Shown here: piece by piece, positions 11,141 to 51,774 of the stretch
Layout: each line of letters starts with the position of its first letter
Numbering within the stretch: position 1 is the stretch's first letter
NCBI GenBank assembly: GCA_964436005.1
Contig: CAYTBK010000007.1
Span: 1,340-65,339, forward strand
Direction: 5' to 3'
DNA from: an uncultured Acidobacteriota bacterium
Lineage (GTDB): Bacteria > Acidobacteriota > JAAYUB01
DNA: 64,000 bases
Notes under the pieces: generated by a model
What the model was told of the DNA's origin: nothing
Seen by the model: the letters and a program-made list of their open reading frames with translations, nothing else
The model's database searches: none
Program-made: the position numbers and the translations under genes

Positions 11141-11152
11141 GGCGGGCTGACC

Positions 11153-15477: not shown

Positions 15478-15649
15478 TCTTCCTCCTGGCTGTTTCCGCG
15501 GGCGTCTCCGCGGGCTGTCGGCCGAACCGCCCGCCCGGTCCCGGGTGATGCCCTTCGCGACGGGCGACTCTTCGCGTGCGTCCCGCCGAACCGAGCGGAT
15601 GCCCGGCAGGATGATCGCGCCAAGTGGGGCCATGCCCAAGTTTGAACCT

Positions 15650-17308: not shown

Positions 17309-17318
17309 GTCGGTTCTC

Positions 17319-17696: not shown

Positions 17697-17750
17697 TCTT
17701 CCACCTCCTGGAGCTTTGTCGCCGCCGTTGTCTGACATCGGAACAACCGC

Positions 17751-22306: not shown

Positions 22307-23326
22307 CTACCAGCAGTCTTCCGGTTTGGCGGGTCGCATCATGAGGGCGGCGACGGCCGAGTGGGCGTCCTTGTCGTGGAAGAGCGCCTCGTACACTTCC
22401 CGGGTGATGGGCAATTCCACGCCGACGCGGTTCCCCAGTTCCATGGCCGATTCTGTGGTCCGGACGCCTTCGGCCACCATGACCATCTCGCCCAGGATTT
22501 CGGGCAGCCGGCGCCCCTTCCCGATCTGCTCGCCGACGTAACGGTTGCGGGAGTGCCGGCTCATGCAGGTGGTGATCAGGTCGCCCATCCCGGCCAGTCC
22601 GGCGAAAGTCGAGGCCTTGGCCCCCAGGGCCAGTCCCAGGCGGGTGATTTCCGCCAGGCCCCGGGTCAGCAGGGCGCCCTTGCTGTTGTCGCCGAAGCCG
22701 AGCCCGTCGCACACGCCCGTGGCCAGGGCGATGACGTTCTTGAGCGAGCCGGCCAGTTCGACGCCGACCAGATCGCTGCTCGTGTAGACCCGGAACAGGT
22801 CGCACATGAAGGTTTCCTGGACGAACAGGGCGGTCTGTTCCCTGTCCGAGGCCGTCACGACCACGGTGGGCAGGCCCCGGCTGACTTCTTCGGCGTGCGA
22901 CGGTCCGGAAAGAGTCGCCACGAGACCGGGGGGGAGGAAGGGAAGCTCTTCGCGGATCATCTCCGACATGCGCTTGAGCGTCTTGTTCTCGATGCCTTTG
23001 GAAACGTTGACGATGGGGCAGGGGGAAGGGCGGGCCCCGGCCAGCCGCCGCATCACCGAGCGGGCTGCCTGCGAGGGCGAGGACATGACGATCAGTTCCG
23101 CCCCCGGCAGAAGGGACTCCATGTCCGTGGAAACGGCGATTTCGCGCGGGATGCTCACGCCCGGGAGAAAACGGGTGTTTTCCCCCCTTTCCCTCATGTT
23201 GGTCACCTCGGTTTCCTCATAAGCCCAAAGGCCGACCTGATGGCCGTTCCTGTGGAGAAGTAGCGCCAGCGTGGTTCCCCATCCCCCGGCGCCAAGCACT
23301 GCCACTTGACGTTTGATCTTGGCCAT
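22307..23326 (-). CDS. gpsA: NAD(P)H-dependent glycerol-3-phosphate dehydrogenase
   Basis: VLGAGGWGTTLA, SKGIE, SGPSHAEEV, LKNVIALATG, GDLITTCMSRHSRN. Confidence 0.96.
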   Translation of the reverse strand: MAKIKRQVAVLGAGGWGTTLALLLHRNGHQVGLWAYEETEVTNMRERGENTRFLPGVSIPREIAVSTDMESLLPGAELIVMSSPSQAARSVMRRLAGARPSPCPIVNVSKGIENKTLKRMSEMIREELPFLPPGLVATLSGPSHAEEVSRGLPTVVVTASDREQTALFVQETFMCDLFRVYTSSDLVGVELAGSLKNVIALATGVCDGLGFGDNSKGALLTRGLAEITRLGLALGAKASTFAGLAGMGDLITTCMSRHSRNRYVGEQIGKGRRLPEILGEMVMVAEGVRTTESAMELGNRVGVELPITREVYEALFHDKDAHSAVAALMMRPAKPEDCW

Positions 23327-23356
23327 GGCTCACTCCCTGGTGAATTCAGACTGCCC

Positions 23357-23431
23357 ATTCTAGAGCATCCGGGCATTCCTTGCAACGGGAATCTGTCTTT
23401 CCTTTTATCGGGGAAACAGTTCTGGTACAAT
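23357..23431. promoter_or_regulatory. Divergent promoters: TTGCAA-17-TAGAAT (minus, gpsA) and extended -10 TGGTACAAT (plus, kinase)
   Basis: Read directly at 23357-23385 and 23423-23431. Confidence 0.55.
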
Positions 23432-23485
23432 GGCCCTGTCTTCTGGCCATGCGCTGCAAGAGTCGCTGCGGAATGTGAGAACAGG

Positions 23486-26400: not shown

Positions 26401-27403
26401 CGGCAAGGCGGCGGTCCTGACGCGCAAGCTGCTGGGCTTCGCCCGGAAAGGGAAGTATGTCGTCACCGGCCTGGAGGTGCACGAGGTCATCGAGTCGGTG
26501 ATCGTGTTTTCCCGCCGCATTGTGCCGGCCAATGTGGAGTTCGCCCGCGAGTTCAGCCCTGAGTCCCTTTTTGTGCACGGGGACCGCACCCAGCTGGAAC
26601 AGGTTTTTCTCAACGTCTTCTTGAACGCCTGGGAGGCCATGCCGCAGGGCGGGAAAATCGTCGTGCGCACTTCCCGGGAGAACCTGGCCGAGGACAAGCC
26701 GTTGGTCGACCACACCATGAAGCGGGGCGAATACGTGAAAATCGAGGTGGAGGACGCCGGCTGCGGCATCGCGCCGGAGAACATCTCCAAGGTGTTCACG
26801 CCGTTCTTCACCACCAAGAAACATGATTCCGGTTACGGCCTGGGCCTGGCCACGGCTTTCGGAACCGTCAAGAACCACCAGGGCTACATCTACCTCGGCA
26901 GCGAACTCGGTCGGGGGACGGTGGTGACCGTCTACTTGCCCTTTTACCTGCCCAAGGAAAAAGGCTTTTCAGAAGACCAGCCGGCGCCGCGCTGGGAAAA
27001 CCTGGCCCAGCGGTCCGTCCTGGTGGTGGAGGACGAGGCCATCCTCCGCAAGTATCTGCGCAACCTTCTTTCCTCGTACGAAATCAAGGTGTACGAGGCG
27101 GAAAACGGCATCCAGGCCTTGCAACTGTTCCGCATGTTCGCAGACGACATCGACGGCGTCCTGCTGGACGTGAACATGCCGCTGATGGACGGTGTCGAGA
27201 CATACAAGAAACTCAAGGAGATCCGAACCGACATCCCCGTCCTCATCCTGGGCTCGTACGGGGAGGACGCCAAAGTCAGGGTCATGCTCAACATGGGATG
27301 TCTGGGCGTCGCCTCGAAACCCGTGGACGCCGAAACGGTGCTGGCTCTCCTGGCGAAGATCGTCGCCGGTTCGAACGGCGAGGCGAACGGGGCGGAGTGT
27401 TGA
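23486..27403 (+). CDS. Hybrid sensor histidine kinase: periplasmic Reg_prop beta-propellers, Y_Y_Y, TM, PAS, HisKA, HATPase, REC
   Basis: Repeats such as YTVAEGL, DNQGQIWAGTLGGL and YSSLEGLPD; TM LFYFLIFGTVAVVALLF; H-box IAHDFNN; N, G1, F and G2 boxes; receiver VVEDE...LLDVNMP...SKP. Confidence 0.92.
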   Translation: MKHSSRNRFFMHNSLPASLFLAVVFLFPTFAASAGAGGKKGTGKENAQEPVYAHYLFDHYTVAEGLVQEQVVTAMQDNQGQIWAGTLGGLSCYDGKSFRNYSSLEGLPDTVVLSLATDAEGSVWVGTASGVAKFEGGAFVQYYLVGFRKQPSVRDIHQMPDGTVALATSGGVVLARGNNQRKLTTKDGLPDNNILCLELSPEGGVWIGGAKGLSLFRDGKVIHIPYLNVPDRERDFVSGLSSDPVTGDLVVTRKERIQILKSGVLKETVLPGLDKDGELNQAVVDRTGTLWVPVLKKGVLYRPQGGAFRSVTEETGLRSNVVYSLLVDYEDNVWFCTDSGLDKLSNRSVTCFSTNNGLPSNTVWFAAPCHGRVAVGTAQGLLFMDDQALAPEVFLPGKSIVEYHPLPDGSVLLGAEDGVYLFRDGKGIPADVKELNGLVVWRVAELGDGENLLGTIDGIWKGRHPSYKRLPWPEWAHGKEISDFLRFDRDHWWVATNKGILQMTVKHGVASFSRDVILPGADVQCLCRLPNGDVLAGTIGKGIIRCFPGGTSRNESILPPGSSSNVWALALEASGKLWIGTSRGIFTYWNGVCTDFNARYRIPFSEVSCRRSIQLGANGTGAIATTTGLYLYKESKRSETPLPRGGITDILVNGKPWSDGQALDLSYTDKLTVRFRCLSFLNEKGNRYQVFLEGVDSDWRAPQPEGVIDFPFLPPGNMVFRLRIINASGEILEVPRKLLIRSHPPFTETPLFYFLIFGTVAVVALLFVMYKIHLDRREKTRLAGLVQEKTAELAESEEKYRHLVEGSPVGIAILQKGSMVYHNTYLARITKHAVGELLGKPFESLIHHEDLPLFREYKEQCDRGDTSLHEYEIRLICADSSMKYAILHAIATMYRSEQAILVNVTDITEKKRLQEQLTYFQKLESIGTLAGAIAHDFNNIMQGIGGLASLIRMQLEPTSPFHGDLALIEDSTGKAAVLTRKLLGFARKGKYVVTGLEVHEVIESVIVFSRRIVPANVEFAREFSPESLFVHGDRTQLEQVFLNVFLNAWEAMPQGGKIVVRTSRENLAEDKPLVDHTMKRGEYVKIEVEDAGCGIAPENISKVFTPFFTTKKHDSGYGLGLATAFGTVKNHQGYIYLGSELGRGTVVTVYLPFYLPKEKGFSEDQPAPRWENLAQRSVLVVEDEAILRKYLRNLLSSYEIKVYEAENGIQALQLFRMFADDIDGVLLDVNMPLMDGVETYKKLKEIRTDIPVLILGSYGEDAKVRVMLNMGCLGVASKPVDAETVLALLAKIVAGSNGEANGAEC

Positions 27404-33424: not shown

Positions 33425-34857
33425 TCAGCGTGCTGGCGTTTGTTTTCATCCTGGGCATCATGATCTTCCTTCATGAACTGGGGCATTTTCTGGCCGCACG
33501 GGCCTTCGGGATCCGGGTGGAGACCTTCTCCCTCGGGTTCGGCCGGCGGCTCTGCGGTTTCAAGCGCAACGGCACCGACTACCGCATTTCCATGATCCCG
33601 CTCGGCGGGTTCGTCAAGATGGCCGGGGAGCACTTCTCCGAAGACGCCACCGGCGATCCGGGCGAGTTCCTTTCCAAGCCCCGCTGGCAGCGGGCCATGG
33701 TGACGGCGGCGGGTCCGCTGATGAACCTCCTGTTTGCCGTCTTCCTGCTGTGGGTCAACTACATGGTCGGCGTGGAAGTCCCGGGTTTCTACCAGGCGCA
33801 GCCCCGTGTCGGGCTCGTGGGGGGAAACTCCCCCGCGGCCGGGAAAGGGCTGGAGACCGGCGACTACCTGGTAGCGGTGAACGGTTCGGAGATGACCACC
33901 TGGTCTGATTTTGTCATGGCCTCCGTCTCCTTCTCCAACCAGAGCGTTCCGGTGACCTTTTCCCGCGACGGGGTTTCTTTCCAGCGCCAGCTGCATTTCC
34001 GGGAAACGGAGACGGACCCTTCGGAAATCACCGGAATCTACCCCTTCATCCCCATCCATGTGGAGGACGTGGCCAAAAACTCCCCCGCCGAGCGGGCCGG
34101 TTTGCGCGCGGGGGACGAAATCGTGTCGGTGACCGACGGGCCGTCGGTGCAGCGGGGGTTCCTGGCCGTGTTCCGACTGATCCGGGACAATGCCGGAACG
34201 GTCGACTACGGACTGGTCGCCGACGGCCTCTTCCGCCTGTTCACGCCGGCGGCGCCCGGATTCGGTGCCGCCGATCCCGCCTGGGACAGACAGCGGAATC
34301 CTTTTTCCGGGATCACCGAGGGAAGGCGCCTACGCGCGGCTGTCAGGCGAGGCGGCCAGACCTGGGCCGTGGATTTCGTGCCCGACGCCGTGAACCGGAA
34401 CGACGGTCGGGGCCTGGCCGGTTTCCAGCTCGATTTCCGCCTGGTCACGGAGCGCTTCGGCCCCTGGCTGGCCCTGAAGCGTTCGCTCAAGGACAACCTG
34501 CGGTTCGTCGCCATGACCTACCGGGTTCTGGCCAAGGTGGTCGGGGGCACCCTGTCCATTCGCCAGTTCTCGGGCCCCATCGGCATCGCCCGGGCTTCCG
34601 GCGACGCGGTGAAAACAGGCAACCTGGTGGTTGTCTTCAATTTCATGGCCCTCATCAGCATGAACCTGGCGGTGCTGAACCTGTTGCCCATCCCGGTCCT
34701 GGACGGCGGGATGCTGTTCTTCCTGCTGCTGGAGATGGTCTTCCGGCGCGATATCCCCCTGCGGTTCAAGGAGCGGGCGGTAACGGCCGGCATGCTCCTG
34801 CTGCTGGCCTTCATGGCCGTCGTCATCTTCTTCGACGTCTACAAGATGTTCAAATAG
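33421..34857 (+). CDS. rseP: RIP metalloprotease RseP (site-2 protease with two PDZ domains)
   Basis: LHELGHF (HExxH), IPLGGFVKM, AGPLMN, NLLPIPVLDGG; conserved position after dxr. Confidence 0.95.
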   Translation: MISVLAFVFILGIMIFLHELGHFLAARAFGIRVETFSLGFGRRLCGFKRNGTDYRISMIPLGGFVKMAGEHFSEDATGDPGEFLSKPRWQRAMVTAAGPLMNLLFAVFLLWVNYMVGVEVPGFYQAQPRVGLVGGNSPAAGKGLETGDYLVAVNGSEMTTWSDFVMASVSFSNQSVPVTFSRDGVSFQRQLHFRETETDPSEITGIYPFIPIHVEDVAKNSPAERAGLRAGDEIVSVTDGPSVQRGFLAVFRLIRDNAGTVDYGLVADGLFRLFTPAAPGFGAADPAWDRQRNPFSGITEGRRLRAAVRRGGQTWAVDFVPDAVNRNDGRGLAGFQLDFRLVTERFGPWLALKRSLKDNLRFVAMTYRVLAKVVGGTLSIRQFSGPIGIARASGDAVKTGNLVVVFNFMALISMNLAVLNLLPIPVLDGGMLFFLLLEMVFRRDIPLRFKERAVTAGMLLLLAFMAVVIFFDVYKMFK

Positions 34858-35003
34858 CGGCATGGCGACCGAAGAGTATCCAGAGCGCTGACCGCCTCCC
34901 CGCGGACGGACCGGCCCGACCGGGGGAAAGTTCTGGGCCGAACGTGTCCGCGGAGGAAACGATCGGCCTTCCTCAAGTTCATCCTGTTCATCAATGTTAA
35001 ATA

Positions 35004-35474
35004 TTAAATTTTCAATGTGCTGCGCGCTGCCAGCAAGGCCCGGATCCGGCGGGCCAGGCGGTCGGCCAGGCGGCGCACGGCGGACTCCACCGGCGGGGAG
35101 AGCGATTCGCGCAACTCTTCCGGCGGCCATATGGTGACAGCGAAAACCTCCGTTTCGGGGAAGGGGGCCACCTGGCCCAGTGCGCGCAAGATGCCCAGCA
35201 CCCAGGCCAGGTCGTTCTGGTGCAGGGAGGCGGCGGCGCGGGAAGGCGTGGGGACGCGCCGGGTCACCCGCCCCGGTGTCCTGCCGCAGACGGCGTCCAC
35301 GAGAAAGAACCGGGGGGCGAGCGGCAGACTGTCGGCCAGGGCGAAGAGGTCGCCGTCCAGGGTCTGCAGGAGCAACCTCGACTCGCCGGGAAAGGAAGCG
35401 GCGAGTTCCGCCACGACGGCGGGACCGGCGCCGTCGTCCCCGGCCAGGGGGTTGCCGACGCCGATCACGCCCAC
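35004..35474 (-). CDS. Hydrogenase maturation protease (HycI/HoxW-like)
   Basis: IGVGNPLAGDDGAG, LVDAV, SLHQ; last gene of the hydrogenase run. Start uncertain (GTG at 35474). Confidence 0.88.
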   Translation of the reverse strand: MGVIGVGNPLAGDDGAGPAVVAELAASFPGESRLLLQTLDGDLFALADSLPLAPRFFLVDAVCGRTPGRVTRRVPTPSRAAASLHQNDLAWVLGILRALGQVAPFPETEVFAVTIWPPEELRESLSPPVESAVRRLADRLARRIRALLAARSTLKI

Positions 35475-35490
35475 GGCGAAGGGGTGCGGC

Positions 35491-36207
35491 TCAGTAGAGC
35501 TTGATCTCGTAGCGACACCCCTTCTCGCCGCGCTCTGCCTGGACCAGGCGAGGGCGCACGTTGGCCATGCGCGAAAGGTACCCGGCCAGGTAGTTGTAGA
35601 AAAGCACGCACAGTTCCTGGCCCAGGGGGATGTTTTCCTTTCCGCACAGGTCGCGGACGAAGCACTTGCCGACGTCGATGGTCAGATGGTCGCCCGCCGC
35701 GGCAAAGGTGAGATCCCAGGTGGGGGCGAACTGCTCGCGGGCCAGGTCCAGCACCTCGGCGAAGTCCTTGGGCTGGCGGTAGCGGGGCAGTTGGCCCGCC
35801 AGCGTCCGGCCCGCCATGGTCCCCACGGCCGGCAGGCCGCCGCCGAGAGTCTGCTTGAAGACGGAGGCCACGGACAGGAGCCGCACCCCCAGGTCGTTCA
35901 GCGCCGATTTCAGTTCGGCCTCGTCGGACATCACCCGCTGGTGCGTCTTCTCCTCCCCCAGCAGGCGGGTGGCCAGGTCCAGGGCGTAGGGGTCGTGGTA
36001 GAAGTTCTCCGAATGAACCACCTCGCCGTGATCGATGGCCCCGGCCGGGCAGATCTCCGAACAGCTCAGGCAGCCGAAGCACTCGAGGGGTTTCGCTACT
36101 GTCGGCACCCGCTTTTCTTCGTCGAAGGCGAAGACGCCGGTCCGGCAGGTCTCCACGCACAGCGTGCAGCCCACGCAGGCTTTTTCGTCGATCTGGATGG
36201 AAACCAT
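35491..36207 (-). CDS. 2[4Fe-4S] ferredoxin fused to a V4R-like C-terminal domain
   Basis: CVGCTLCVETC and CFGCLSCSEICP. The C-terminal CFVRDLC...LC...YLAG...GCRYEI pattern resembles the V4R fold. Confidence 0.8.
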   Translation of the reverse strand: MVSIQIDEKACVGCTLCVETCRTGVFAFDEEKRVPTVAKPLECFGCLSCSEICPAGAIDHGEVVHSENFYHDPYALDLATRLLGEEKTHQRVMSDEAELKSALNDLGVRLLSVASVFKQTLGGGLPAVGTMAGRTLAGQLPRYRQPKDFAEVLDLAREQFAPTWDLTFAAAGDHLTIDVGKCFVRDLCGKENIPLGQELCVLFYNYLAGYLSRMANVRPRLVQAERGEKGCRYEIKLY

Positions 36208-36210
36208 GCG

Positions 36211-37608
36211 TCACCTCCTGCCGATGCGGCGGACCGTCTCGCCGCGGCGCCGGACGACCACTTCCAGGGGCATCCGCCCCAGGGCGTGCGTGGCGCAGGC
36301 CAGGCACGGGTCGAAGCACCGTATGACGAACTCGAGTCCGTTGAGGAAGCCTTCGTCGGAATGGCGGCCGTACAGGGACTGGGCCGCCGCCGTCACGGCC
36401 CCGTCGATGGCGTCGTAGTTGTTCTGCGTGGCCACCACCAGGTTGGCGGCGGTCAGCCGGCCGGCCGCATCGGCCGTGTAGTCGTGGACCAGGATGCCGC
36501 GCGGCGCCTCGATCAGCCCGATGTACCGGCCGGCCCGCGGGGCGGGGTCGGCGGTCTTGACGGGGCCGCCGCCGAGCTGCTTCGGGATCTCGGCCATCCT
36601 CTCGGCGCAGTGAACCATCTCGATCAGGCGGGCCGCGATGAAGTCTACCACGGACACCTTCTCCCGGATTTTTGTCCGGAAGGCCTGCAGCAGGCTGTCC
36701 GCCTTCGGCGTGCCCAAACTGTCGTTGGCCTGCAGCCGGGCCAGGGGGCCGACCAGCTGGAGGCGGTCCTCCAGGCCGCGGATGCGAACCGACTTCATGT
36801 ACGATCCCGGCATGACGGATTCCACGATGTTCTCGCCGTACGCCGAGGCGGGGAAGGTCTTCAGCCGGGCCCCGCCCGTGTCGACGACCCGGACTTCGCC
36901 GTGCAGGAAGTCCACCCGGCCGTCCTGGGAAACCGCCATGTTCAGGAAGGGCAGCTCGGTGGACTGGCGGATCTCTTCCACGGACTCCAGGCGGGAACGC
37001 ACCACTTCGCCCAGGTCTTCCAGCAGGGTGAGGGCTTCCTCTCCCCAGGCACCGATGCGGGACATCCGGTCCTCGGGCGGGCGGTACGACATGCCGCCGG
37101 GCACGGCCGTCACCGGGTGGACGCCGCGCCCGCCGACGGCCTCCACGGTGAGCTGGCCGAGAGTCCTCAGCCGGAGCGCTTTTTTGGCGGCTTCCGGGTT
37201 CGCCTGCAAAAGCCCGAACACGTTGCGGTCGGCGGAGGGCGATTCGATGCCCAGGATCAGGTCCGGGCCGAGCAGGAAAAAGGTGCTCAGGGCGTGGGAG
37301 TGGAGGATGTGCCCGGCGTACAGGAGGTCGCGCAGCAGCCGGGCGTCCGGCGGAACCTCGACGCCCAGGCCGTTCTCGATGGCCTCGACGGAGACCAGGT
37401 GGTGGGCGGCCGGGCAGACGCCGCAGATACGGGCCGTGAACTGGGGCATCTTGAAGAGTTCCATCTTCTCGATGAACTTCTCGAAACCGCGGATTTCCAT
37501 CACCTGGAGGTGGGCTTTCTCCACGGCCCCCGCGTCGTTCACGTCCAGCAGGACCTTGGCGTGGCCTTCGATCCGGGTGACGGGAGTGAGCGTGATCCGT
37601 TTTCCCAT
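36211..37608 (-). CDS. mvhA: [NiFe]-hydrogenase large subunit, group 3c (MvhA)-like
   Basis: TRIEGH, L1 RICGVCPAAH, EAPRGILVHDY, L2 DPCLACATH followed by a 24-aa cleavable extension (ALGRMPLE...). Confidence 0.92.
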   Translation of the reverse strand: MGKRITLTPVTRIEGHAKVLLDVNDAGAVEKAHLQVMEIRGFEKFIEKMELFKMPQFTARICGVCPAAHHLVSVEAIENGLGVEVPPDARLLRDLLYAGHILHSHALSTFFLLGPDLILGIESPSADRNVFGLLQANPEAAKKALRLRTLGQLTVEAVGGRGVHPVTAVPGGMSYRPPEDRMSRIGAWGEEALTLLEDLGEVVRSRLESVEEIRQSTELPFLNMAVSQDGRVDFLHGEVRVVDTGGARLKTFPASAYGENIVESVMPGSYMKSVRIRGLEDRLQLVGPLARLQANDSLGTPKADSLLQAFRTKIREKVSVVDFIAARLIEMVHCAERMAEIPKQLGGGPVKTADPAPRAGRYIGLIEAPRGILVHDYTADAAGRLTAANLVVATQNNYDAIDGAVTAAAQSLYGRHSDEGFLNGLEFVIRCFDPCLACATHALGRMPLEVVVRRRGETVRRIGRR

Positions 37609-37620
37609 GGTTGTTCTCCT

Positions 37621-38553
37621 CTATCCTGCCGTTTCGGGCTGCGTCGGGGCGGTCCACTCGCGCAGCTCGACGGCGGGCTTGCGGTACATGACGGGGGAAG
37701 CCATCGCATAGGCGTAGAACGTCTTGGCGTCTTCCTCGATGTAGCGCCTGACCTCCTCGGCGGGGATTCCACAGAGCATCTCCATCCGTTTGGCCACCAG
37801 GGTCCGGATGTCCAGGTGCGGTTCGGCCACGACGTCGGCCGAGGGGCCGTTGCATCCCGTGCAGGCGACGCCGACTTCCGGGCAGGGGGCCAGGCAGCGA
37901 TTGAGGGTGACCGAACCCAGGCAGACCACGCCCTGGCTCAGGAAGCACTTCTCCGGATCGGGGGCCGTGACCGCGCCCCGGCGAAGGGGCGTTCCCGGGC
38001 TCTTCACCATCTTCCGCCGGCAGTCGGAGCAGACCGGTTTGCCGGTGGAAACGGCGTCCTTGTTCCCCAGGAACCGCCGGACGATGGTGGCGATGAAAGC
38101 GGGATGCGGCGGGCAGCCGGGCAGGAAGGCGTCCACGGGAACCAACTCGTCGATGGGGACGACGCTCTTCTCCAGCGGCACGGCGTCGGCGTCCGGGCGT
38201 TGCCCCGGCACGTTGGTCGGCCCCTGCGAATAGGCGGTATCCAGCACCTGGTCCTTTTCGTACAGCCAGCCCAGGCCCGACGGCCCGCCGTAGACGGCGC
38301 AGGAACCGAAGGCCACCAGCGTCTTGACGCTGGCCCGGAGCCGGCGGAGCATCTCCCGGTCGTGCTCGCTGCGGACGGCGCCCTCCACGATGCCCAGGTC
38401 GGCCTCGGGGAAGCCCTTTTCGTCCATCAGGACGGGAAGCCGGACGAAGACCACGTCTTCCACCAAGGCCAGAAGTTTCTCGTGCAGGTCTACCATCGCC
38501 ACATGGCAGCCGGAGCAGCCCGACAGCCATTCCGTCGAGATTCTGGCTTTCAT
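37621..38553 (-). CDS. mvhG: [NiFe]-hydrogenase small subunit, MvhG-like (cytoplasmic)
   Basis: Start MKARISTEWLSGCSGC at 38553 (ATGA overlap). VEGAV, FGSCA, PGCPP, plus extra Cys clusters CSDC, CFLSQGVVCLG and RCLAPC...CTGC. No Tat signal. Confidence 0.9.
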   Translation of the reverse strand: MKARISTEWLSGCSGCHVAMVDLHEKLLALVEDVVFVRLPVLMDEKGFPEADLGIVEGAVRSEHDREMLRRLRASVKTLVAFGSCAVYGGPSGLGWLYEKDQVLDTAYSQGPTNVPGQRPDADAVPLEKSVVPIDELVPVDAFLPGCPPHPAFIATIVRRFLGNKDAVSTGKPVCSDCRRKMVKSPGTPLRRGAVTAPDPEKCFLSQGVVCLGSVTLNRCLAPCPEVGVACTGCNGPSADVVAEPHLDIRTLVAKRMEMLCGIPAEEVRRYIEEDAKTFYAYAMASPVMYRKPAVELREWTAPTQPETAG

Positions 38554-39038
38554 GATTTCTCCTCCCAGGTCATTTCCTTCAGGCAGGCGTTGGGGCCGGC
38601 CTGGATGATCTCCAGGCCCACCTTGTGCCCGGGGAAGATCTTCTCCATGGCGCCGGCGAAGACGCCATGGGCCATCTGGCACAGGGAGAGCTTCTGCTCG
38701 TGGGCGAAGCGGAACAGGGCGTTCCGGATCATGCAGGTTCGGAAGACCACGCGCATCTTCCTCGTCCCGCCATCCACCTGCACCAGTTCGGCGCTCTCTC
38801 CCTGGAAAGGCTCGAAGTCCCACCGGATACCCCTCTCGGCCAGTGCGGCGCGCAACAGCTTCAGGGCCTCGACGGGGTCGGCGGTGGGCGCGACGTTCTT
38901 GACCGCCTCCAGGCCGAACTTCTTGCCCGCGTTGAAGCTGATGGACATGCAGCCGCGCCCCAGGTGCTTTTCCGCACCGTGGGCCAGGGCGCCCAGGAAA
39001 TAGGAGACGTCGTGCAATTCTTTCCGCAACGGTTCCAT
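38550..39038 (-). CDS. Stand-alone V4R-like domain protein
   Basis: Start MEPLRK at 39038. CMIRN...LCQMAHGVFAG...GPNACLKE matches the Cys spacing of the ferredoxin-fused domain. Confidence 0.7.
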   Translation of the reverse strand: MEPLRKELHDVSYFLGALAHGAEKHLGRGCMSISFNAGKKFGLEAVKNVAPTADPVEALKLLRAALAERGIRWDFEPFQGESAELVQVDGGTRKMRVVFRTCMIRNALFRFAHEQKLSLCQMAHGVFAGAMEKIFPGHKVGLEIIQAGPNACLKEMTWEEKS

Positions 39039-39147
39039 ACATCCCCCTGCTGACGTGTTTGGCGTCCACCGCCGCAAACGGGGTCCGCGGGCGGCCGACG
39101 GGATCTTGGATTCAGGAGACCTCGGGCGTGACGCCGGCGGCGGGACG

Positions 39148-39510
39148 CTACATGGCCCGCTCGATCTCGGCCGAGCGCTTGCGGAGCTGGTACCGGATGT
39201 TGCCCAGGTTGGCGCCGGGCGCCGCCACCACGGCCAGGATCGAATCCGTTCCCAGCAGCGAGATGACGATGATGCCGTCCTTGTACTCGAACAGCCCCTG
39301 GGTGAGCTGGCCGATCCCCAGTTCCTGGCCGACCACCTCCGACGAACCGACGCCCGTCGAGATGACCGCGCCGACGGCGTCGGCGTCGACTTTCCCCCCC
39401 CGGGATACCGCCTCGATGACGAAACCGTCCCGGCTGACCAGCACGGCCGTATTGATGCCTTCCACGATAATCAGTTCCTTGAGCAGGTCCGTCAGCGTCA
39501 TGATGCTCAT
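39148..39510 (-). CDS. Roadblock/LC7 (MglB-like) protein
   Basis: 120 aa; EGINTAVLVSRDGFVIE, LFEYKDG, LAVVAAPGANLGNIRY. Confidence 0.88.
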   Translation of the reverse strand: MSIMTLTDLLKELIIVEGINTAVLVSRDGFVIEAVSRGGKVDADAVGAVISTGVGSSEVVGQELGIGQLTQGLFEYKDGIIVISLLGTDSILAVVAAPGANLGNIRYQLRKRSAEIERAM

Positions 39511-39514
39511 GTTG

Positions 39515-40957
39515 TCAAACCTCCACCTTGTCTATGGTATTCAGGATTCTTGTCAAGAGGGCGCCGGCCTGGGGCGCCCCTTCCATCCGTTCGGCCGGGA
39601 TGGTGGTCGTTGCGCCGGTGGCCAGGACGAAAAGGGGGATATCCAGGGAAGAGACATGGGTGCGGAAGTCTTCGAGGTGGCGCTCGTCTTCCGGGCCGGC
39701 CACGGCGAAGATCGTCGCGTCGGTGGTGCCGAGCATGCGGTCCCAGAGGAAAGAGAACCGTTTGTCGCCCCGGATGGAGAAGAGATGGAAGACCCGGTCC
39801 GACCAGGCCAGCTTGAGGAAGCTCATCCCGCCCATGGTCGCTCCCCGCGGGGCTTCCAGGCCGCAGGCGCCGGCCAGGGTCTGCAGCACCACCCGGCAGT
39901 CCTCCTCGCGTACGCAGGCCACCAGCAGGCGGACGGGGCGGACCGGCAGTTGCAGGATGTCGTTCCCGACCTGGGGCTCGATGTGCCCTTTCCGCACCAG
40001 TTTGGCCACGGTGACCGCCACGCGGGACTGGGAAAGACGGGTCGTCTCCTGGATTTCGGGAAGGTTGACCTTGCCCTTCCGGATGGCCCGGATCACCGCC
40101 GTGGTGTCGGGGTCGTCCTGCCCGTCGGGAACGCTGTTCAGCTTCAGCGGCTGGATGTCGGCGGGAACGAATTCCTGGCTGTCTTGCCTCTCGTCGTAGA
40201 GTCGGATGGTGTCCATCAGCATGAAGCTGATGGGTTTGGCGATGGCTCCCTCGGGCACGGCCCCGGGGGAGAACCGGAAATGCCCCTCCCGCAGGGCGAG
40301 CATCTCCATCAGGGCGTCTTCGCCCGTGATGTCGCGGAAGACGGCGTCCATCAGCATGGGGCTGCGCACCGTCAGCTTGCCATCGGCGTCTTTCGTCCGG
40401 ATGTGGAGAATCCCTTCCCGCATGGTGTAGTCGAGGAACTGGAGGATGTCCATCAGCGACACCTCTTCCAGGTATCCGCCCAGCGCCTCTTCCCTCGGCC
40501 GCCGCGAAAGTTTGCGGGTCAGGGACTCCAGCCGGGCGACCAGTTCGTCCGGGTCGAAGGGCTTGGGCAGGTAATCGTCCGCCCCCGAGCGGAGGCCGGT
40601 CACCCGGTCCCGGGCCGTGCCCAGGGCGGAGAGGAAGAGGAAAGGCGTGTCGCGGAACCCGTTCATGGCGCGGAAGGCCTTGCAGAAATCCAGCCCGCTC
40701 ATGCCGGGCATCATGATGTCCGAAACCACGATGTCGGGTTCCGCCTGTCGCGCCGCTTCCAGGCCGGCGTACCCGTCCTTGGCGCAGACGACGCGGCAGG
40801 GCGATCCGCTCAGGCCGCTTTCCAGGATCTGCTCCACCAGGGAGAGGAGCCGGGGGTCGTCGTCCACCACCAGGATCACCCAGGGTTCCTGCTCCGGCCC
40901 GTTCGGCGTCCCGGCCTTGGGGAGTGAGTTGTCCTGCCTGGGTGCTGATTTCGCCAT
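39515..40957 (-). CDS. Response regulator: REC, DUF4388/PATAN, winged HTH, degenerate MglA-like GTPase domain
   Basis: VVDDD...SDIMMPG...LSA...KPF (intact receiver); GYLEEVSLMDILQFL...GEDALMEML...EGHFRF (DUF4388); wHTH-like LPEIQETTRLSQSRVAVTVAKLVRKGHI; LFSIRGDKRFSFLW (G3-like) without a P-loop. Confidence 0.85.
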   Translation of the reverse strand: MAKSAPRQDNSLPKAGTPNGPEQEPWVILVVDDDPRLLSLVEQILESGLSGSPCRVVCAKDGYAGLEAARQAEPDIVVSDIMMPGMSGLDFCKAFRAMNGFRDTPFLFLSALGTARDRVTGLRSGADDYLPKPFDPDELVARLESLTRKLSRRPREEALGGYLEEVSLMDILQFLDYTMREGILHIRTKDADGKLTVRSPMLMDAVFRDITGEDALMEMLALREGHFRFSPGAVPEGAIAKPISFMLMDTIRLYDERQDSQEFVPADIQPLKLNSVPDGQDDPDTTAVIRAIRKGKVNLPEIQETTRLSQSRVAVTVAKLVRKGHIEPQVGNDILQLPVRPVRLLVACVREEDCRVVLQTLAGACGLEAPRGATMGGMSFLKLAWSDRVFHLFSIRGDKRFSFLWDRMLGTTDATIFAVAGPEDERHLEDFRTHVSSLDIPLFVLATGATTTIPAERMEGAPQAGALLTRILNTIDKVEV

Positions 40958-41014
40958 GCGCTTCCTCGACCTGCCGACACCCGTTGCCGTTCCGATCATC
41001 CATGAACTGCTCAC

Positions 41015-41043
41015 ATTTTAAAGACAGAAGCATTGACTTGCAA
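41015..41043 (-). promoter_or_regulatory. Sigma70-type promoter TTGCAA-17-TAAAAT for the hydrogenase-signalling operon
   Basis: Hexamers at 41038-41043 and 41015-41020; 17-nt spacer counted. Confidence 0.65.
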
Positions 41044-41254
41044 TGAATTTGTTCACAAATGCAGGTTGTTCTTCCGCCCGAGCCGAGGAGGGCAAAGCGG
41101 TTACCCTGAAAAGCGGGGGTTTTGGGCCAGCCCGCCCCTGGCCAGTGAAGTTGCATCTGCCGGGGAAAGCGGGTACCATTCCCCTTTTCCGTCGCCTTGC
41201 CGCCGGGGCCCGGCGACTCCCGGTCCCGAATTCCCGCGAGGAGGGTTTGCCGTC

Positions 41255-44200
41255 ATGTGGATTGTGTCCTGGCCCCGATTGGCGCTATTGTGCCTGGTTC
41301 TTTCCGTGTCCTGGTCCGGCCTGGCCCGGGCCGGCGCTCCCGTGCCGGCGGCGGAGGCAGGCATTCTGCTGCCGAATTCCGGCTTCGAAGAGGACGGAGG
41401 GGCGGGGCAGCCCGCCGGCTGGGCCCTGGCGCCTTCGTCCGGCGGTGCCGCCGGCGCACTCGCCCGCAGCGACGGAGGGGCGCACGGCGGCAAGGCGTGC
41501 CTGGCCCTGCGACACGCCGTTCCCGCCTCCACCACCGTGCAGTCGGCAGAAGTGCCGCTGGAAGTGGGGCACCTGTACCGCCTGAGCGGATGGATCCGCA
41601 CGGAAAAGGCGTTCACGGACCCCGGACAGCGGTACCCCACGTCCCTGCCCGCCTGCCTCGGCATGGCCTCCTTCCCCTTCACCAACCACTCGCCGGCGGT
41701 GGGCGGCGACTCCCCCTGGCGGGAGGTCAGCGTGCTCTTCATCGCCACCCGGGGCAAGGACCGCGTGCAGCTCCACCTGGGCCGGAACGGCGCCTCGTCC
41801 GGGACCGCCTGGTTCGACGACCTCCGGCTCGAGCCGGTGGAGAACGTCGGGGAACTGGTGCCCGCGCAGACCGCCCGCTGGTTCGGCCCCGCCTATCGCT
41901 ACGACGACCGGGGCTGGATCTTCGTCCACATCCAGGGCGAGCCCTACGCGCGGGGTTACCAGTTCGGCTACCTGCTTGGCGAGGAGATCGCCGAGTACGC
42001 CCGCAAGCTGTCGGTCCGGCAGAACGCCCAGGACCCCGCCGCCGGCTGGGAGATCCTCCGGCTGATGACCGACGCCCTGATGTTCCGGCGTTACGAGCCG
42101 GAGTATCAGACGGAAATGAAGGGCATCGCCGACGGGGCGGCCAAGAGCGGCGCCCGGATCGGCACGCGGGCCGTGGACGCGCTGGACATCGCCGTGCTCA
42201 ACTCGGTGGTGGACCTCGGGCAGCTGCGGGACGCGCTCCCGAAAACCCGCACCGCCCTCACCGGAATCAATTTCCTGAAGAACGAGGACGAACTCCAGGT
42301 GCGGGAGAACAACCACAAGTGCTCGGCTTTCGCCGCCACGGGTTCGGCCACCGCCGACGGACGGCCCGTGTTCGGGCAGCTGTTCATGTGGAACGGCTAC
42401 CTGGGCGTGCACTGGGACGTTCTGCTGGACGTGCAGCCCGCCCGGGGCCACCGCTTCGTCATGCAGACCTTCCCGGGGGGCATCCATTCGGGGGCGGATT
42501 TCTACATCAGCGACGCCGGACTGGTGGTGGGGGAGACCACGGTGGGCCAGACCCCCTTCCACGACGGCGGCACCCCCCAGAGCAACCGCATCCGCAAGGC
42601 CATCCAGTACGCCTCGTCGGTGGACGATTTCGTGAAGATCATGACGGACCGGAACAACGGGCTCTACACCAACGAGTGGCCCTTCGCCGACGTGAAGACG
42701 GGCGAGGTGGGCATCCTCCTGCTGGGGACGGAGAAGTGGCGGCTGTGGCGCTCGTCGGGGAAGGACTTCCCGGCCGGCCTGACGGATTTCTACTGGTGCA
42801 ACAACAATGCAAAGGATTTGGAGGTGCGGAAGGAGTACGCCGCCTCGCCGGACAACGCGCCCTGCGACCTGGCCTTCCGCCCCTGGAACCGCGACCTGGC
42901 CCTGGTGGATTTCTACCGCCGGGAAAAAGGGAAGATCGACGCCACGGCCGCCGTCGACTTCTGGGCCACTTCCCCAGTCAACCGGCCGCACGCCTGCGAC
43001 GGCAAGGTGACCACCGGGGAGATGGCCGACCGGCTGGTGTTCCTGGCCCACGCCGGCAAGACCACCCTGCGGGAGAAGTTCGTCGGCGGGCGCTTCGTCG
43101 CCGACCTGCCCGGGGCGCAGCCCCACCTGTCGCTCGGCTACTCCACGGCCAGCCCGGTCTTTCTGACGGAGCGCCTGCAGGCCGCCCACGCCGCCGCCGG
43201 CGAGAAACCGGCCGAGGAGAAGGCGCCGGAGACGGACCTGGCGGCCGTTTCCGAAGTCTCCACCGTGGACAGGCGCCTGCTCTGGCAGAACACAATCGTG
43301 CCGGCCACGCCCGCGGAAAACTGGTTGAGCGCCGGTTCCGCCGCCTACTGGCGGTTGCTCCAGGACATGCCCAAGGAGGGCAGGGAGGCGGCCCCCTGGC
43401 TGCGCGACCAACTGGAGGGCATCCGCAACGCCTGCCTGTACACCATGGACCGGGAGGGCGACCTGCCGCCCCTCTCCGCCACCCTGCGCTTCGACCGCTA
43501 CGGCGACTACCAGATCTCCCGGGTCAAGGGCACTTTCGCCCTGCACCAGCTCCGGCTGATGCTGGGCAACGCGGCCTTCTTCCGGATGATGGAAGCCGTG
43601 CACGCCGAACTCGCCGGCCACACCGCCACCACGGAGGACTTCCTGCGGGCGGCGGAGGCGGCGGCGGGCCAGCCGGTCCGGGCGCTGGCTCTCCAGTGGC
43701 TGGAGCGGGCCGGGCTGCCGGACCCGGCGGTGGAGGCAGAGGCGGCGGAGAAGAGCCCGGGCAACTGGGAAGTGGTGGTGAAGGTGCGCCAACAGGGCCA
43801 GCCCTGGCGCCTGTTCGGCGCCGTGGACATCGAGGGCCAGGGCAAGACCTGGCGCCGGCCCTGCGAAGTCGACGGCGGGGAAACCGTGCTGACCTTCACC
43901 GTGCCGGAGCGGCCCCTCCGCGTCCGCTTCAACGCCGGGGCCGACTTCCCCGTGGTCTGCGGGGAGTTCTACACCCTGGGCAGCTTTTTCGAGGACTTCC
44001 AACACACCCGCATCGTGTACGGCACCTCCCGGGAGATCGAGGCCAACCGGACCCTGGCCGGCCGCTGGCAGGAGACCGTCGCCGACGTGTTCAGCGAGGT
44101 GTTGCCCCCCCTGGTCAAGGACTGCGAGCTCCGCGAAGCGGAGCGGGCCTCCTGCGACCTGATGGTGCTGGGGCAGGCGGAGGACAACACCCTGACCGCG

Positions 44201-51427: not shown

Positions 51428-51529
51428 GGTGCCTCCTTGATCTTCGGAAGCCCGTTCCGGGCGGGCGAAGACGAAACTCCGCATTCTGCGTGCACTCCCC
51501 TGTCGCCCGAAAGGCTGCCGGTTTCCTCC

Positions 51530-51558
51530 ATCATGACCGTGAACGCTCAATCCGTCAA
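51530..51558 (-). promoter_or_regulatory. Sigma70-type promoter TTGACG-17-CATGAT
   Basis: Read directly; spacer counted. Confidence 0.55.
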
Positions 51559-51774
51559 CCTGTATTTGCCAGTGCAACCGGTGGGATTTGCCGGCCGTCG
51601 GACTCCTTTTCGTTGTATGATTCGCCTCGTCGCAGAGCGGGTTTCCCCCCTCTTCTCCAGGCCTGGCCGGGTTGGAATCGCGACCGGCGACGTCCCGAGG
51701 GCGGTGCGCCTTTTGAGCGATGCGTCAGCGAGGGTTCAGTGAGTTTGTTGAATACTCGAGGCGGAAGATTTCGT

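Follow-up and report, generated by a model that had tools for sequence, protein, structure and literature searches.

Why should a [NiFe]-hydrogenase be encoded in the middle of an operon of signaling proteins? The question is raised by a locus on contig CAYTBK010000007.1 (assembly GCA_964436005.1) of an uncultured Acidobacteriota bacterium (JAAYUB01), from which we analyzed a stretch of 64 kb, referred to here as the window. The first-pass annotation of this DNA had proposed that the enzyme is a sensor and not a catabolic hydrogenase. The genetic link to signaling on which that proposal was built is sound; that the protein reports and does not harvest is what we infer from it. Judged from sequence and genome comparison, we lean, with modest confidence, toward reading it as a 3c-lineage hydrogenase that senses H2 or a low-potential redox state and would signal through a pair of V4R-fold proteins to modules of the Roadblock/PATAN/GTPase type.

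Results

A hydrogenase operon with signaling genes at its head

Seven genes, all in one orientation on the minus strand, occupy positions 35004-41014 (Table 1). They are flanked by a convergent rseP-like gene on the plus strand, ending at 34857, and by a divergent plus-strand gene starting at 41033. The gene order is the one first described: a REC-PATAN (DUF4388) protein with a degenerate GTPase domain, Roadblock, a V4R-fold protein, the small and large hydrogenase subunits, a ferredoxin-V4R fusion and a protease. The gaps between them, in operon order 4, 109, -4 (an ATGA overlap), 12, 3 and 16 nt, are also close to those reported earlier, and the 109-nt gap may contain a second promoter. The sigma70-like promoter said to drive the operon is less secure. 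Its site is present, AT-rich and the sole promoter-like match in 34700-41400, but a single match against 0.6 expected from shuffles is weak and not statistically compelling.

Table 1. Features of the hydrogenase-signaling operon in the window
Feature	Position	Strand	Basis
Sigma70-like promoter candidate, TTGCAA-17 nt-TAAAAT	41015..41043	-	sits in AT-rich patch
REC + PATAN (DUF4388/PatA_N) + possible wHTH + C-terminal degenerate Arf/MglA-like GTPase domain	39515..41014	-	Pfam, profiles
Roadblock/LC7 (MglB-like), 120 aa	39148..39510	-	PF03259 49.7 bits
V4R/Bet3-fold protein, 162 aa, paralog of ferredoxin-V4R C-domain	38550..39038	-	fold match
[NiFe] small subunit, MvhG type, 310 aa	37621..38553	-	5odc_E, VhuG 209 bits
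[NiFe] large subunit, group 3, 465 aa	36211..37608	-	NiFeSe_Hases; VhuA 268 bits
Ferredoxin (2x[4Fe-4S]) + V4R/Bet3-fold domain, 238 aa	35491..36207	-	Fer4 + fold
Maturation endopeptidase, 156 aa	35004..35474	-	TIGR00072

An enzyme apparently equipped for catalysis, without its usual partners nearby

The large subunit has the motifs claimed for it intact, with RIEGH at residues 12-16, RICGVCP at 60-66 and DPCLACATH at 433-441, and the cleavable tail beyond the last of these is indeed there, 24 aa long. Its top PDB matches are 7t2r_D (1e-87), MvhA 5odc_F (6e-86, 292 bits) and 5xf9_D (9e-81). The small subunit, whose corrected start (ATG 38553) overlaps the stop of the V4R gene by 4 nt, contains an Oxidored_q6 domain and best matches MvhG (5odc_E, 1.4e-65), the alignment covering the whole cluster-binding stretch and all cluster cysteines. 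Its twelve cysteines (13, 16, 85, 147, 175, 178, 203, 211, 220, 224, 231 and 234) correspond to three [4Fe-4S] clusters. The maturation protease scores 71 bits with TIGR00072 (cutoff 47) and keeps its position in nearly all related loci. The hydrogenase possesses every feature of an active, matured enzyme with a five-cluster electron wire.

Electron-acceptor partners had been noted as absent, and the wider comparison agrees: no mvhD, hdrA or diaphorase gene lies beside the hydrogenase, either in this operon or in the related loci. Searches for MvhD (with the L073 protein as query) and HdrA gave no match in the window or in 62 genome loci. HdrABC was found neither in the window nor in any flank of the related loci, hyp and diaphorase genes do not occur within the window, and hyp genes are missing from the related loci as well. 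Where MvhD would be expected stand the V4R and ferredoxin-V4R subunits. More distant relatives do carry metabolic partners, one at 37% identity sitting in a canonical HdrA-MvhD context with mvhD adjacent and another (L076), at 42%, in a NuoEFG and hyp context. Relatives of the large subunit in a 3c context (37-41% identity) and in a 3d/HydABCSL context (42%) lie at about the same distance from it.

Two V4R-fold proteins

The gene that overlaps the small subunit (corrected start ATG 39038, SD AGGGGGA) encodes a protein previously called V4R-like. This call is invisible to Pfam, which returned no match to any family, PF02830 (V4R) included, yet it is confirmed at the level of the predicted fold. 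The AF2 model (pLDDT 86) has TRAPPC3/Bet3 and the V4R sensor domains of PoxR and MopR as its top Foldseek matches (prob 1.0, TM about 0.55-0.6; query-normalized TM about 0.43-0.61). The ferredoxin-V4R protein joins Fer4 families (residues 4-60, Pfam) to a C-domain that yields only a weak ATC_hydrolase match and none to the Pfam V4R model. In its AF2 model (pLDDT 82.5), this C-domain resembles YslB, TPC6/Bet3, BcsD, MopR/PoxR/DmpR and H-NOX, with a Foldseek prob of 1.0 and a target-normalized TM, for the C-domain only, of about 0.5-0.6. Aligned with each other by hhalign, the standalone protein and the C-domain match at E 5e-4, with three cysteines in register.

Among relatives, C102, C120, C152, H113 and H124 of the standalone protein are invariant, as are cysteines 11, 14, 17, 21, 43, 46, 49 and 53 of the fusion, together with 182, 188, 200 and 231. 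The three or four invariant cysteines of the V4R domains lie in the region equivalent to the Zn site that tethers sheet to helix in the V4R/Bet3 fold. That site is structural in PoxR and Thor-TRAPPC3, and the cysteines conserved here probably form one like it and not a redox center, which counts against the sensory model. The fold serves elsewhere as ligand sensor and GTPase regulator and binds small molecules, so the modeled structures would fit either a sensory or a GTPase-regulating role. The window proteins share this fold, a two-layer alpha/beta one, with PoxR/MopR/DmpR and TRAPPC3/Bet3 but differ in lacking a Pfam V4R match, in the ferredoxin fusion and in their linkage to a hydrogenase.

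A pseudoGTPase and a Roadblock protein

The first gene of the operon probably starts at ATG 40957, which is preceded by the SD GAGGAAG. Its product has a REC domain (PF00072, 90.5 bits, residues 47-162) followed by a PATAN domain (DUF4388/PatA_N, PF14332, 56.9 bits against a cutoff of 25, residues 180-276). The wHTH domain assigned to it earlier is weakly supported, since the segment reaches just a sub-threshold MarR_2 match (19 bits, cutoff 27) and a PDB sequence search with it gave no match. The pseudoGTPase assignment is moderately supported: in a profile search of the PDB with the C-terminal domain, small GTPases were the only matches (E 0.0025-1), and hhalign pairs it with MglA-like proteins at E 2e-4. 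The P-loop (GxxxxGKT) is missing from the domain (RLLVACVREEDCRVV), which sets it apart from MglA-type GTPases. The adjoining Roadblock protein exceeds the PF03259 cutoff of 23 bits with 49.7 and belongs to the Roadblock/LC7 family, although with the MglB equivalog model it scores 19 bits where 200 are needed.

This part of the operon recalls the MglA-MglB-(RomR) systems and the PATAN regulators PatA and PixG/PixE, in that it groups Roadblock, a REC-fused PATAN and an MglA/Arf-like domain. Linkage of PATAN, MglB and MglA has been documented, Roadblock and PATAN being known partners of MglA-type GTPases. Here, the GTPase domain has no P-loop and forms part of the regulator protein, whereas a true MglA takes its place in 20 related loci. 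A survey of prokaryotic small GTPases makes no mention of a link to hydrogenases, the word 'hydrogenase' occurring zero times in it.

The pairing of hydrogenase and signaling genes recurs across phyla

A survey of homologous neighborhoods had been named beforehand as the test of the sensory proposal, with homologs lacking signaling genes as the outcome that would speak against it. We examined about 60 related loci, with approximately 17 kb seen per genome. The cassette of V4R, small subunit, large subunit, ferredoxin-V4R and protease is invariant, with the standalone V4R present in 55 of 55 loci and ferredoxin-V4R in 57 of 57. Where at least 3 kb of upstream sequence was available (51 loci), Roadblock genes precede the cassette in 49, PATAN in 39, a true MglA (GPGMSGKTT) in 20 and any of the three in 50. 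The 295 kb of upstream sequence hold 90 Roadblock, 51 PATAN and 20 MglA matches, compared with 3, 1 and 0 in 309 kb downstream, an enrichment of about 30-fold. The survey thus speaks strongly for the link to signaling, with two V4R-fold proteins nearly always present, and none of the outcomes named beforehand as refuting the proposal was observed. On the other side, some genomes have the Roadblock/PATAN genes divergently transcribed or 3-5 kb away, and locus L040 has none of them within 8 kb.

Loci with this pairing come from seven or more bacterial phyla and from a single methanogen, Methanofollis formosanus; hosts include Acidobacteriota, Desulfuromonadales/Geobacter, Fermentibacteria/Aegiribacteria, Eisenbacteria, Fibrobacterota and Methylomirabilota. 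Partners vary with lineage. In Geobacter sulfurreducens they are CheW and an MCP, in Fermentibacteria cNMP-binding and GGDEF-STAND proteins, in other loci histidine kinases and GGDEF proteins, and in still others Ser/Thr kinases. Sister clades of the hydrogenase are likewise linked to signaling genes, and one of these, at 41% identity, joins an intact Hanks (Ser/Thr) kinase and the hydrogenase small subunit in a single protein, a Rosetta-stone fusion. It appears that the same sensor cassette feeds different outputs in different lineages, namely true MglA, CheW/MCP, Ser/Thr kinases and c-di-GMP enzymes. Such a range of signaling partners is what one would look for in an input module, and not in a regulated enzyme.

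Discussion

The group 2b hydrogenases HoxBC/HupUV, the best-known H2 sensors, need no extra ferredoxin, which weighs against a sensory role here. Group 2c is reportedly deemed sensory in the HydDB classification through its linkage to c-di-GMP genes. Our hydrogenase resembles group 2b in its proposed working, where a signaling partner senses the redox state that a cytoplasmic [NiFe] enzyme takes on once H2 has bound. In other respects it is not of that group: all best matches are to group 3, and the operon encodes no histidine kinase. Group 2b enzymes lack the C-terminal extension and its protease, while the window retains both (the 24-aa tail and the TIGR00072 protease) and would use a V4R pair with Roadblock/PATAN as transducer in place of a PAS kinase. 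A group 3d/HydABCSL assignment fits poorly too, as the window has no NuoE/NuoF-type diaphorase and the small subunit, at 310 aa, carries three clusters and not the proximal one only. There is a likeness to group 3c MvhAGD-HdrABC (5odc), the F420-non-reducing hydrogenase of methanogens, with which it shares the MvhG-type small subunit, three [4Fe-4S] clusters, a group-3 large subunit, the tail and the protease. However, MvhD/FlpD (a [2Fe-2S] protein) and HdrA are replaced in the window and its related loci by a ferredoxin domain and a pair of V4R-fold proteins.

We propose a model in which an Mvh-type (group 3c) hydrogenase lost MvhD/Hdr and gained a dedicated transducer. The locus encodes a large subunit that is normally matured, an MvhG-type small subunit, a ferredoxin-V4R protein and a second V4R protein translationally coupled to the small subunit, and these four are inherited together across phyla. 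They may form one complex. Oxidation of H2 would load the five-cluster wire, and the redox state of the ferredoxin would alter the conformation or the pairing of the two V4R domains, arranged as a Bet3-type heterodimer. Roadblock and the REC-PATAN-pseudoGTPase protein would read this change, with the REC domain supplying a second input by phosphorylation. What the module controls is probably motility or polarity (taxis to or from H2), or else transcription. As the pairing recurs in at least seven phyla and a methanogen, the hydrogenase most likely reports the H2/redox state and does not serve energy harvest.

A metabolic role is the alternative that we take most seriously, although we consider it less likely. 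The protein would be a ferredoxin-coupled cytoplasmic hydrogenase, working as an H2-evolving valve or in H2 uptake, with ferredoxin-V4R as the point of electron entry or exit, V4R gating by a metabolite and the neighboring genes regulating the enzyme. The intact active site, proton-transfer Glu, three clusters and dedicated protease do look fully catalytic, and a 2x[4Fe-4S] ferredoxin, typical of electron hand-over, is what one would expect of an enzyme passing electrons to a soluble acceptor. V4R domains bind small molecules, and many of the hosts (Fermentibacteria, Fibrobacterota) are fermenters with reductant to get rid of; genome papers interpret a cytosolic hydrogenase of such organisms metabolically, and two proteomics papers state that Geobacter Mvh may take part in hydrogen metabolism, in production and not in uptake. 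Yet in about 60 loci neither an acceptor module (diaphorase, Hdr or MvhD) nor hyp is linked to the genes, whereas metabolic relatives carry these adjacent. The diversity of signaling partners points to an input module, and an enzyme with a purely metabolic function would hardly account for the kinase-small-subunit fusion.

It is improbable, in our judgment, that the hydrogenase is cargo, positioned or assembled at a pole, pilus or membrane complex by V4R and Roadblock/PATAN/GTPase proteins. MglA/MglB/PATAN systems are spatial regulators, V4R/Bet3 makes up GTPase platforms together with Roadblock or longin folds, and the Methanofollis cluster adjoins ParA-like and type-IV-pilus-like assembly genes. 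This would nonetheless leave unexplained the ferredoxin-V4R fusion, the CheW/MCP, kinase and GGDEF partners and the kinase fusion, and by eye the subunits carry no membrane anchor or targeting signal. Least probable of all is that the adjacency is incidental, Roadblock and PATAN being abundant in these phyla, and that the enzyme is a bifurcating Mvh with unlinked MvhD-HdrABC. The small subunit is clearly MvhG-like, MvhD/Hdr could lie beyond the 64 kb of the window genome and the roughly 17 kb seen per related genome, and G. sulfurreducens indeed encodes an Hdr cluster elsewhere. Against this stand the 30-fold, strictly upstream enrichment over at least seven phyla, the invariant V4R and ferredoxin-V4R in the position expected of MvhD, and the adjacent mvhD of canonical Mvh relatives.

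Returning to the sensory reading, it is tempting to extend it further, though only tentatively, to a GTPase switch of the TRAPP/Ragulator kind in a prokaryote, with a hydrogenase as its gate. V4R/Bet3 domains are known to form homodimers or heterodimers, and in TRAPP they lie beneath a small GTPase alongside subunits that are longin- or Roadblock-like. In a switch of this kind, the H2-set redox state of the [NiFe] site would pass through the ferredoxin to a V4R heterodimer resembling Bet3. The heterodimer and Roadblock proteins would jointly provide the platform on which MglA-type GTPases, or the fused pseudoGTPase here, undergo exchange or activation, and the switch would steer motility or polarity to give hydrogen taxis. 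If this were true, the cassette would act as an interchangeable input and could supply Che arrays, Hanks kinases and c-di-GMP enzymes as well, among both bacteria and methanogens.

A partly similar 'Mvh' locus in Geobacter had been noted earlier, and the same core gene order is in fact annotated in G. sulfurreducens as the uncharacterized cluster mvhQRSLFUPV (GSU2416-2423), flanked by CheW (mvhQ) and an MCP (mvhV) (PMC7894505 supplement), which tempers the novelty. Common to both are a hypothetical protein (mvhR), the small and large subunits, a 'hydrogenase-associated ferredoxin' (mvhF) and the protease. The likeness is one of gene order, the standalone V4R corresponding to mvhR and ferredoxin-V4R to mvhF by position. 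Geobacter has an additional hypothetical gene, mvhU, and in place of its CheW and MCP flanks the window has the REC-PATAN-pseudoGTPase and Roadblock genes. Geobacteraceae MAG loci (L001, L032 and L057) are members of the family at 56-60% identity. In the literature we found neither a sensory reading of the cassette nor an assignment of its proteins to V4R nor a linkage across phyla. In proteomics figures for G. sulfurreducens, the MCP MvhV is the only product of the Mvh cluster listed as detected, which is weakly in keeping with hydrogenase subunits that are expressed at a low level, as a sensor would be.

Results

Domain and profile searches of the window recovered seven co-oriented genes in the order claimed by the first-pass annotation, with small corrections to three start codons and to the spacing (see table). 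With the revised starts the intergenic distances are 4, 109, -4, 12, 3 and 16 nt in transcription order, the small-subunit start and the V4R-like stop overlapping as ATGA. A convergent rseP-like gene on one side and a divergent gene on the other delimit the operon, which makes it a natural transcription unit. The sigma70-like promoter proposed earlier is present as a site, although statistically it is near chance (one match against 0.6 expected). An Rfam scan of 34500-41500 (E<=1) gave zero matches, and RNA folding showed nothing out of the ordinary in the 109-nt Roadblock-V4R spacer (z = -1.0). A long antisense open frame across the hydrogenase genes, a high-GC artefact without homology support, misled a simple gene caller.

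Coordinates of the operon genes, other window features and features of related genomes (L numbers denote compared loci; PATAN, DUF4388/PatA_N domain; FdV4R, ferredoxin fused to a V4R/Bet3-fold domain)
Source	Feature	Coordinates	Strand	Details
Window	Hydrogenase operon	35004-41043	-	seven genes
Window	Gene 1, REC-PATAN protein	ATG 40957	-	REC 90.5 bits; PATAN 56.9 bits; ~220 more residues
Window	Gene 2, Roadblock/LC7 protein		-	49.7 bits
Window	Gene 3, V4R-like protein	ATG 39038	-	162 aa; zero Pfam matches
Window	Gene 4, [NiFe] small subunit	ATG 38553	-	310 aa
Window	Gene 5, [NiFe] large subunit		-	
Window	Gene 6, FdV4R		-	2x[4Fe-4S] ferredoxin + 170-residue C-terminal extension
Window	Gene 7, hydrogenase maturation endopeptidase		-	TIGR00072, 71 bits
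Window	sigma70-like site	41043-41015		
Window	rseP-like gene	end 34857		convergent
Window	Divergent gene	from 41033		
Window	Antisense open frame	35017-39003	+	1328 codons
Window	Glycogen/starch cluster	8572-15639	-	
Window	CheX/CheY-like genes	16401-17738	-	
Window	Large histidine kinase	23306-27403	+	1365 aa
Window	Large histidine kinase	51490-55722	+	1410 aa
L028	DnaA-type ATPase protein	5180-6532		450 aa; Bac_DnaA, 1e-21
L040	XylR_N+V4R and EF-G-like genes	3387-6222		
L061	REC+PATAN+Roadblock protein	5413-6558		beside histidine kinase
L068	Ser/Thr kinase-small subunit fusion	5153-7000		
L075	Methanofollis formosanus cluster	5262-15404		CP037968

The large subunit keeps the features noted on first reading, all found in its translation: intact L1 and L2 motifs (RICGVCP, residues 60-66; DPCLACATH, 433-441), the N-terminal Glu motif (RIEGH, 12-16) and, following L2, a 24-residue tail of the cleavable type. 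Its top PDB relatives are all group 3, among them the large subunit of Acetomicrobium NiFe-HydABCSL (7t2r_D, 1e-87), MvhA (5odc_F, 6e-86) and an NAD-reducing enzyme (5xf9_D, 9e-81); taken alone, it is about equidistant from relatives in 3c and 3d contexts (37-42% identity). The small subunit is clearly MvhG-like (5odc_E, 1.4e-65), 3d-type short small subunits scoring much lower against it (98 and 92 bits), and twelve of its cysteines are in register with the ligands of three [4Fe-4S] clusters. From the intact motifs and tail, the MvhG-like small subunit and the three-cluster cysteines, the hydrogenase looks mature and active, and its small subunit places it in the Mvh (3c) lineage.

The label "V4R-like" for the 162-aa protein was borne out at the level of the fold. 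Its family (159-173 aa among the 120 matches listed) carries no Pfam annotation, and JGI names some members "predicted hydrocarbon binding protein". Structures resembling its AlphaFold model (pLDDT 86) are TRAPPC3/Bet3 and the V4R domains by which PoxR and MopR sense phenol, with H-NOX lower in the list. The FdV4R model (pLDDT 82.5) matches YslB, TPC6/Bet3, BcsD, MopR/PoxR/DmpR and H-NOX with its C-domain, and profile-profile alignment joins this domain to the 162-aa family (E 5e-4), with cysteines in register at C102/C182, C120/C200 and C152/C231. The models and the alignment identify the two as V4R/Bet3-fold paralogues. Four invariant cysteines lie in the FdV4R C-domain, in addition to eight in the ferredoxin. 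In PoxR and an Asgard TRAPPC3 homologue, a structural Zn is bound by cysteines of the equivalent region (PMC10933270), and by analogy a Zn site is the cautious reading of the conserved V4R-domain cysteines.

In the first gene the REC and PATAN assignments are solid. The wHTH suggested earlier found no confirmation, the MarR_2 match being sub-threshold and a PDB sequence search with the segment returning zero supporting matches. When the last ~150 residues were searched as a three-homologue profile, the PDB matches were confined to Arf, Arl, G-alpha and Ras proteins (E 0.0025-1) and ran from strand 1 to past switch II; the region also aligns at switch II with MglA-like GTPases of related loci (E 2e-4), and the P-loop is absent from it (RLLVACVREEDCRVV). 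On these three grounds the name pseudo-GTPase, also given on first reading, is fair, and we hold it with moderate confidence. For the standalone PATAN proteins (~245 aa) of Acidobacteriota loci, a GTPase identity of the C-terminal half was rejected (hhalign E 0.06 and 0.009); this half looks Roadblock-like.

Database relatives of the large subunit number 7661 proteins at E<=1e-20, the best 120 of the 7661 being 55-92% identical. Clustering at 50% reduces the close family to one representative (615 bits), and the next cluster scores 404 bits. We compared 62 genome loci, scoring gene presence by HMM searches on stop-to-stop ORFs in all reading frames. They come from Acidobacteriota (Thermoanaerobaculia, Bryobacterales and Holophaga included), Geobacter, Pelobacter and other Desulfuromonadales, Fermentibacteria, Aegiribacteria and Sabulitectum, Eisenbacteria, Fibrobacterota and Methylomirabilota. 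The V4R-like gene lies immediately 5' of the small subunit in all 55 loci with enough sequence, and FdV4R follows the large-subunit gene directly in 57 out of 57. The first-pass annotation had pointed to homologue neighbourhoods as a check on its sensor proposal, and signalling genes do co-occur there: where at least 3 kb upstream is available (n=51), Roadblock is found in 49 loci, PATAN in 39 and MglA-type GTPases, bona fide by their GPGMSGKTT motif, in 20, with at least one of the three in 50. Linkage to the cassette (V4R-like gene to protease) is polar, on the upstream side: 295 kb of upstream sequence holds 90 Roadblock, 51 PATAN and 20 MglA matches, and 309 kb downstream holds 3, 1 and 0. 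Of the relatives with gene context, the nearest (72% identity) repeats the window's gene order up to FdV4R, where its contig stops before the protease position.

The upstream module varies by lineage. Acidobacteriota have PATAN and Roadblock gene pairs 5' of the cassette, and a Desulfuromonadales MAG has a histidine kinase, then one protein that combines REC, PATAN and Roadblock (L061), then the cassette. The Fermentibacteria layout is Roadblock-Roadblock-MglA-PATAN-DnaA-like ATPase-V4R-small-large-FdV4R-protease-cNMP-binding-GGDEF/STAND. The DnaA-type ATPase gene, present in ~16 Fermentibacteria/Aegiribacteria loci, always stands between the PATAN and V4R-like genes; downstream, such loci (L028 and others) carry genes for cNMP-binding and GGDEF-STAND-TPR proteins and two for B12-radical-SAM proteins. 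Four Fibrobacterota loci (L038, L045, L046, L050) carry, 0.5-5.3 kb upstream, a Ser/Thr kinase with TPR repeats and two conserved Pfam-less proteins (about 470-530 and 340-365 aa); as many as three Roadblock genes in tandem, and then the cassette, follow. L040 alone among the loci lacks Roadblock, PATAN and MglA inside 8 kb; upstream of its cassette, as in L041 and L042, are genes for an EF-G-like GTPase and for canonical XylR_N+V4R proteins, between one and three of the latter. In three MAG copies (L054, L056, L059) the small and large subunits are split into multiple frames, through either assembly error or decay.

The predicted signalling theme is retained in sister clades at 46-40% large-subunit identity. 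The 46% clade has ferredoxin and V4R as separate genes, then Roadblock; the 40% clade shares this layout, with Ser/Thr kinases flanking the cassette. The order in the 44% clade is PatA_N-Ser/Thr kinase-V4R-small-large-FdV4R-Roadblock. Gene fusion is a classic sign of two functions acting jointly, and in the 41% clade (L068, also L069) one continuous ORF joins a Hanks-type Ser/Thr kinase to the small subunit. The L068 fusion has intact kinase motifs (GKGGMATV, VIKK, HRDLKPEN, DFG, APE) and all cluster cysteines, and a 533-aa polyferredoxin-FlpD (MvhD-like) protein is encoded just 5' of it. Methanofollis formosanus DSM 15483 (43%), a cultured hydrogenotrophic methanogen (PMC9119062), has the order Fd (84 aa)-V4R-like (187 aa)-small-large-Roadblock-Roadblock-like. 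The genes that follow encode a ParA-like ATPase and a pair of T2SSF proteins, and those upstream a T2SSE ATPase and an archaeal prepilin peptidase; apart from the ParA-like gene, these neighbours are of the type-IV-pilus assembly type.

Discussion

The proposal that this [NiFe]-hydrogenase acts as an H2/redox sensor rather than in catabolism passes the comparative neighbourhood test and, as to function, is still a proposal. We lean towards an H2- or redox-sensing complex as the most likely mechanism. Gene content, folds, cofactor ligands and linkage are observed; complex formation, electron flow into FdV4R, a conformational read-out and an output are inferred. H2 would be split at the [NiFe] site, and electrons would load the three small-subunit clusters and two in the ferredoxin domain. 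The V4R pair, altered by redox state, would signal to Roadblock, PATAN and GTPase-type proteins or, in other lineages, to CheW/MCP, Hanks kinases or c-di-GMP enzymes. A further input, by phosphorylation, may come through REC. Output is probably motility or polarity, judging from the roles of PATAN/MglA systems and from the presence of Che and pilus genes nearby; the other candidate is transcription.

The main rival, which we regard as less likely, is a ferredoxin-coupled metabolic hydrogenase whose activity the V4R domains gate and which the neighbouring genes regulate. Metabolic readings exist in earlier work: two G. sulfurreducens proteomics papers suggest that Mvh may serve hydrogen metabolism (production) and not uptake, and the Hyd24-12/Fermentibacteria genome paper interprets a cytosolic hydrogenase as NAD-linked or a sulfhydrogenase. 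As first noted, the operon lacks the usual electron-acceptor partners. MvhD and HdrA homologues are absent from the genome loci compared and from the 64-kb window, which also holds no diaphorase or hyp genes. The detection method works, because it finds HdrA-like-MvhD-small-large beside a 37%-identity relative, and NuoE/F/G-like subunits, a short small subunit and adjoining hypA, F, C, D and E beside a 42% relative. Incidental adjacency, with Hdr encoded elsewhere, has to be set against the polar linkage and is improbable in our view. That the GTPase-type module serves to localise or assemble the hydrogenase is improbable too.

The core cassette is already known from Geobacter, where it is annotated and uncharacterised, and the "Mvh" locus mentioned on first reading does match in gene order. 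The G. sulfurreducens cluster, in a proteomics supplement, comprises mvhQ (CheW), mvhR (hypothetical), mvhS (small subunit), mvhL (large subunit), mvhF (hydrogenase-associated ferredoxin), mvhU (hypothetical), mvhP (protease) and mvhV (MCP) (PMC7894505). Its core order, mvhR-S-L-F-P, is identical to the window's, but its flanks are chemotaxis genes. MvhV is the sole cluster product listed as detected in the hydrogenase figures of the two proteomics papers. PATAN-MglB-MglA linkage is documented in a prokaryotic small-GTPase survey that does not mention hydrogenases (PMC4316618). Our literature search found no paper that gives this hydrogenase a sensory role, its partners a V4R fold, or the locus a cross-phylum or Roadblock/PATAN linkage; an earlier remark in Coppi 2005 (Geobacter hydrogenases) is possible. 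If the sensory reading holds, which we consider somewhat more likely than not, the system is of a known kind, a sensory [NiFe] hydrogenase, but comes from the group 3c lineage and has a new transducer.

JGI labels many close large-subunit homologues "F420-non-reducing hydrogenase large subunit", and metagenome studies can be expected to take them as Mvh-Hdr-type or NAD-linked energy metabolism, which is probably wrong for the window's clade. Among H2-sensing hydrogenases, group 2b is to our knowledge the one lineage that is understood, and H2 is the central currency of syntrophy. If the sensory reading is true, there would be a second, widespread H2-sensing lineage with a different transducer, explaining H2 perception in anaerobes such as Geobacter, Acidobacteriota, Fermentibacteria and a hydrogenotrophic methanogen, and giving hydrogen taxis a testable molecular basis. 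Bacterial MglA/Roadblock/PATAN switches would also gain a physiological input, as would V4R/Bet3-fold proteins, prokaryotic relatives of parts of eukaryotic TRAPP and Ragulator. Two cultured hosts, the genetically tractable G. sulfurreducens and Methanofollis formosanus, are available for follow-up.

Two histidine kinases of very large size are encoded elsewhere in the window, each with a Reg_prop beta-propeller sensor region; Y_Y_Y was found in the second only, and the first is of the hybrid type, with a receiver domain. Both are candidates for the kinase that acts on an orphan receiver like the REC-PATAN protein. At 17 kb from the operon, a gene for a single-domain CheY-like receiver stands in a row with two genes for CheX phosphatases. 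The glycogen/starch cluster encodes a starch synthase, a GalT-like protein and two GH57 enzymes, and alpha-amylase genes lie beside the operon copy on the closest relative's contig (L063).
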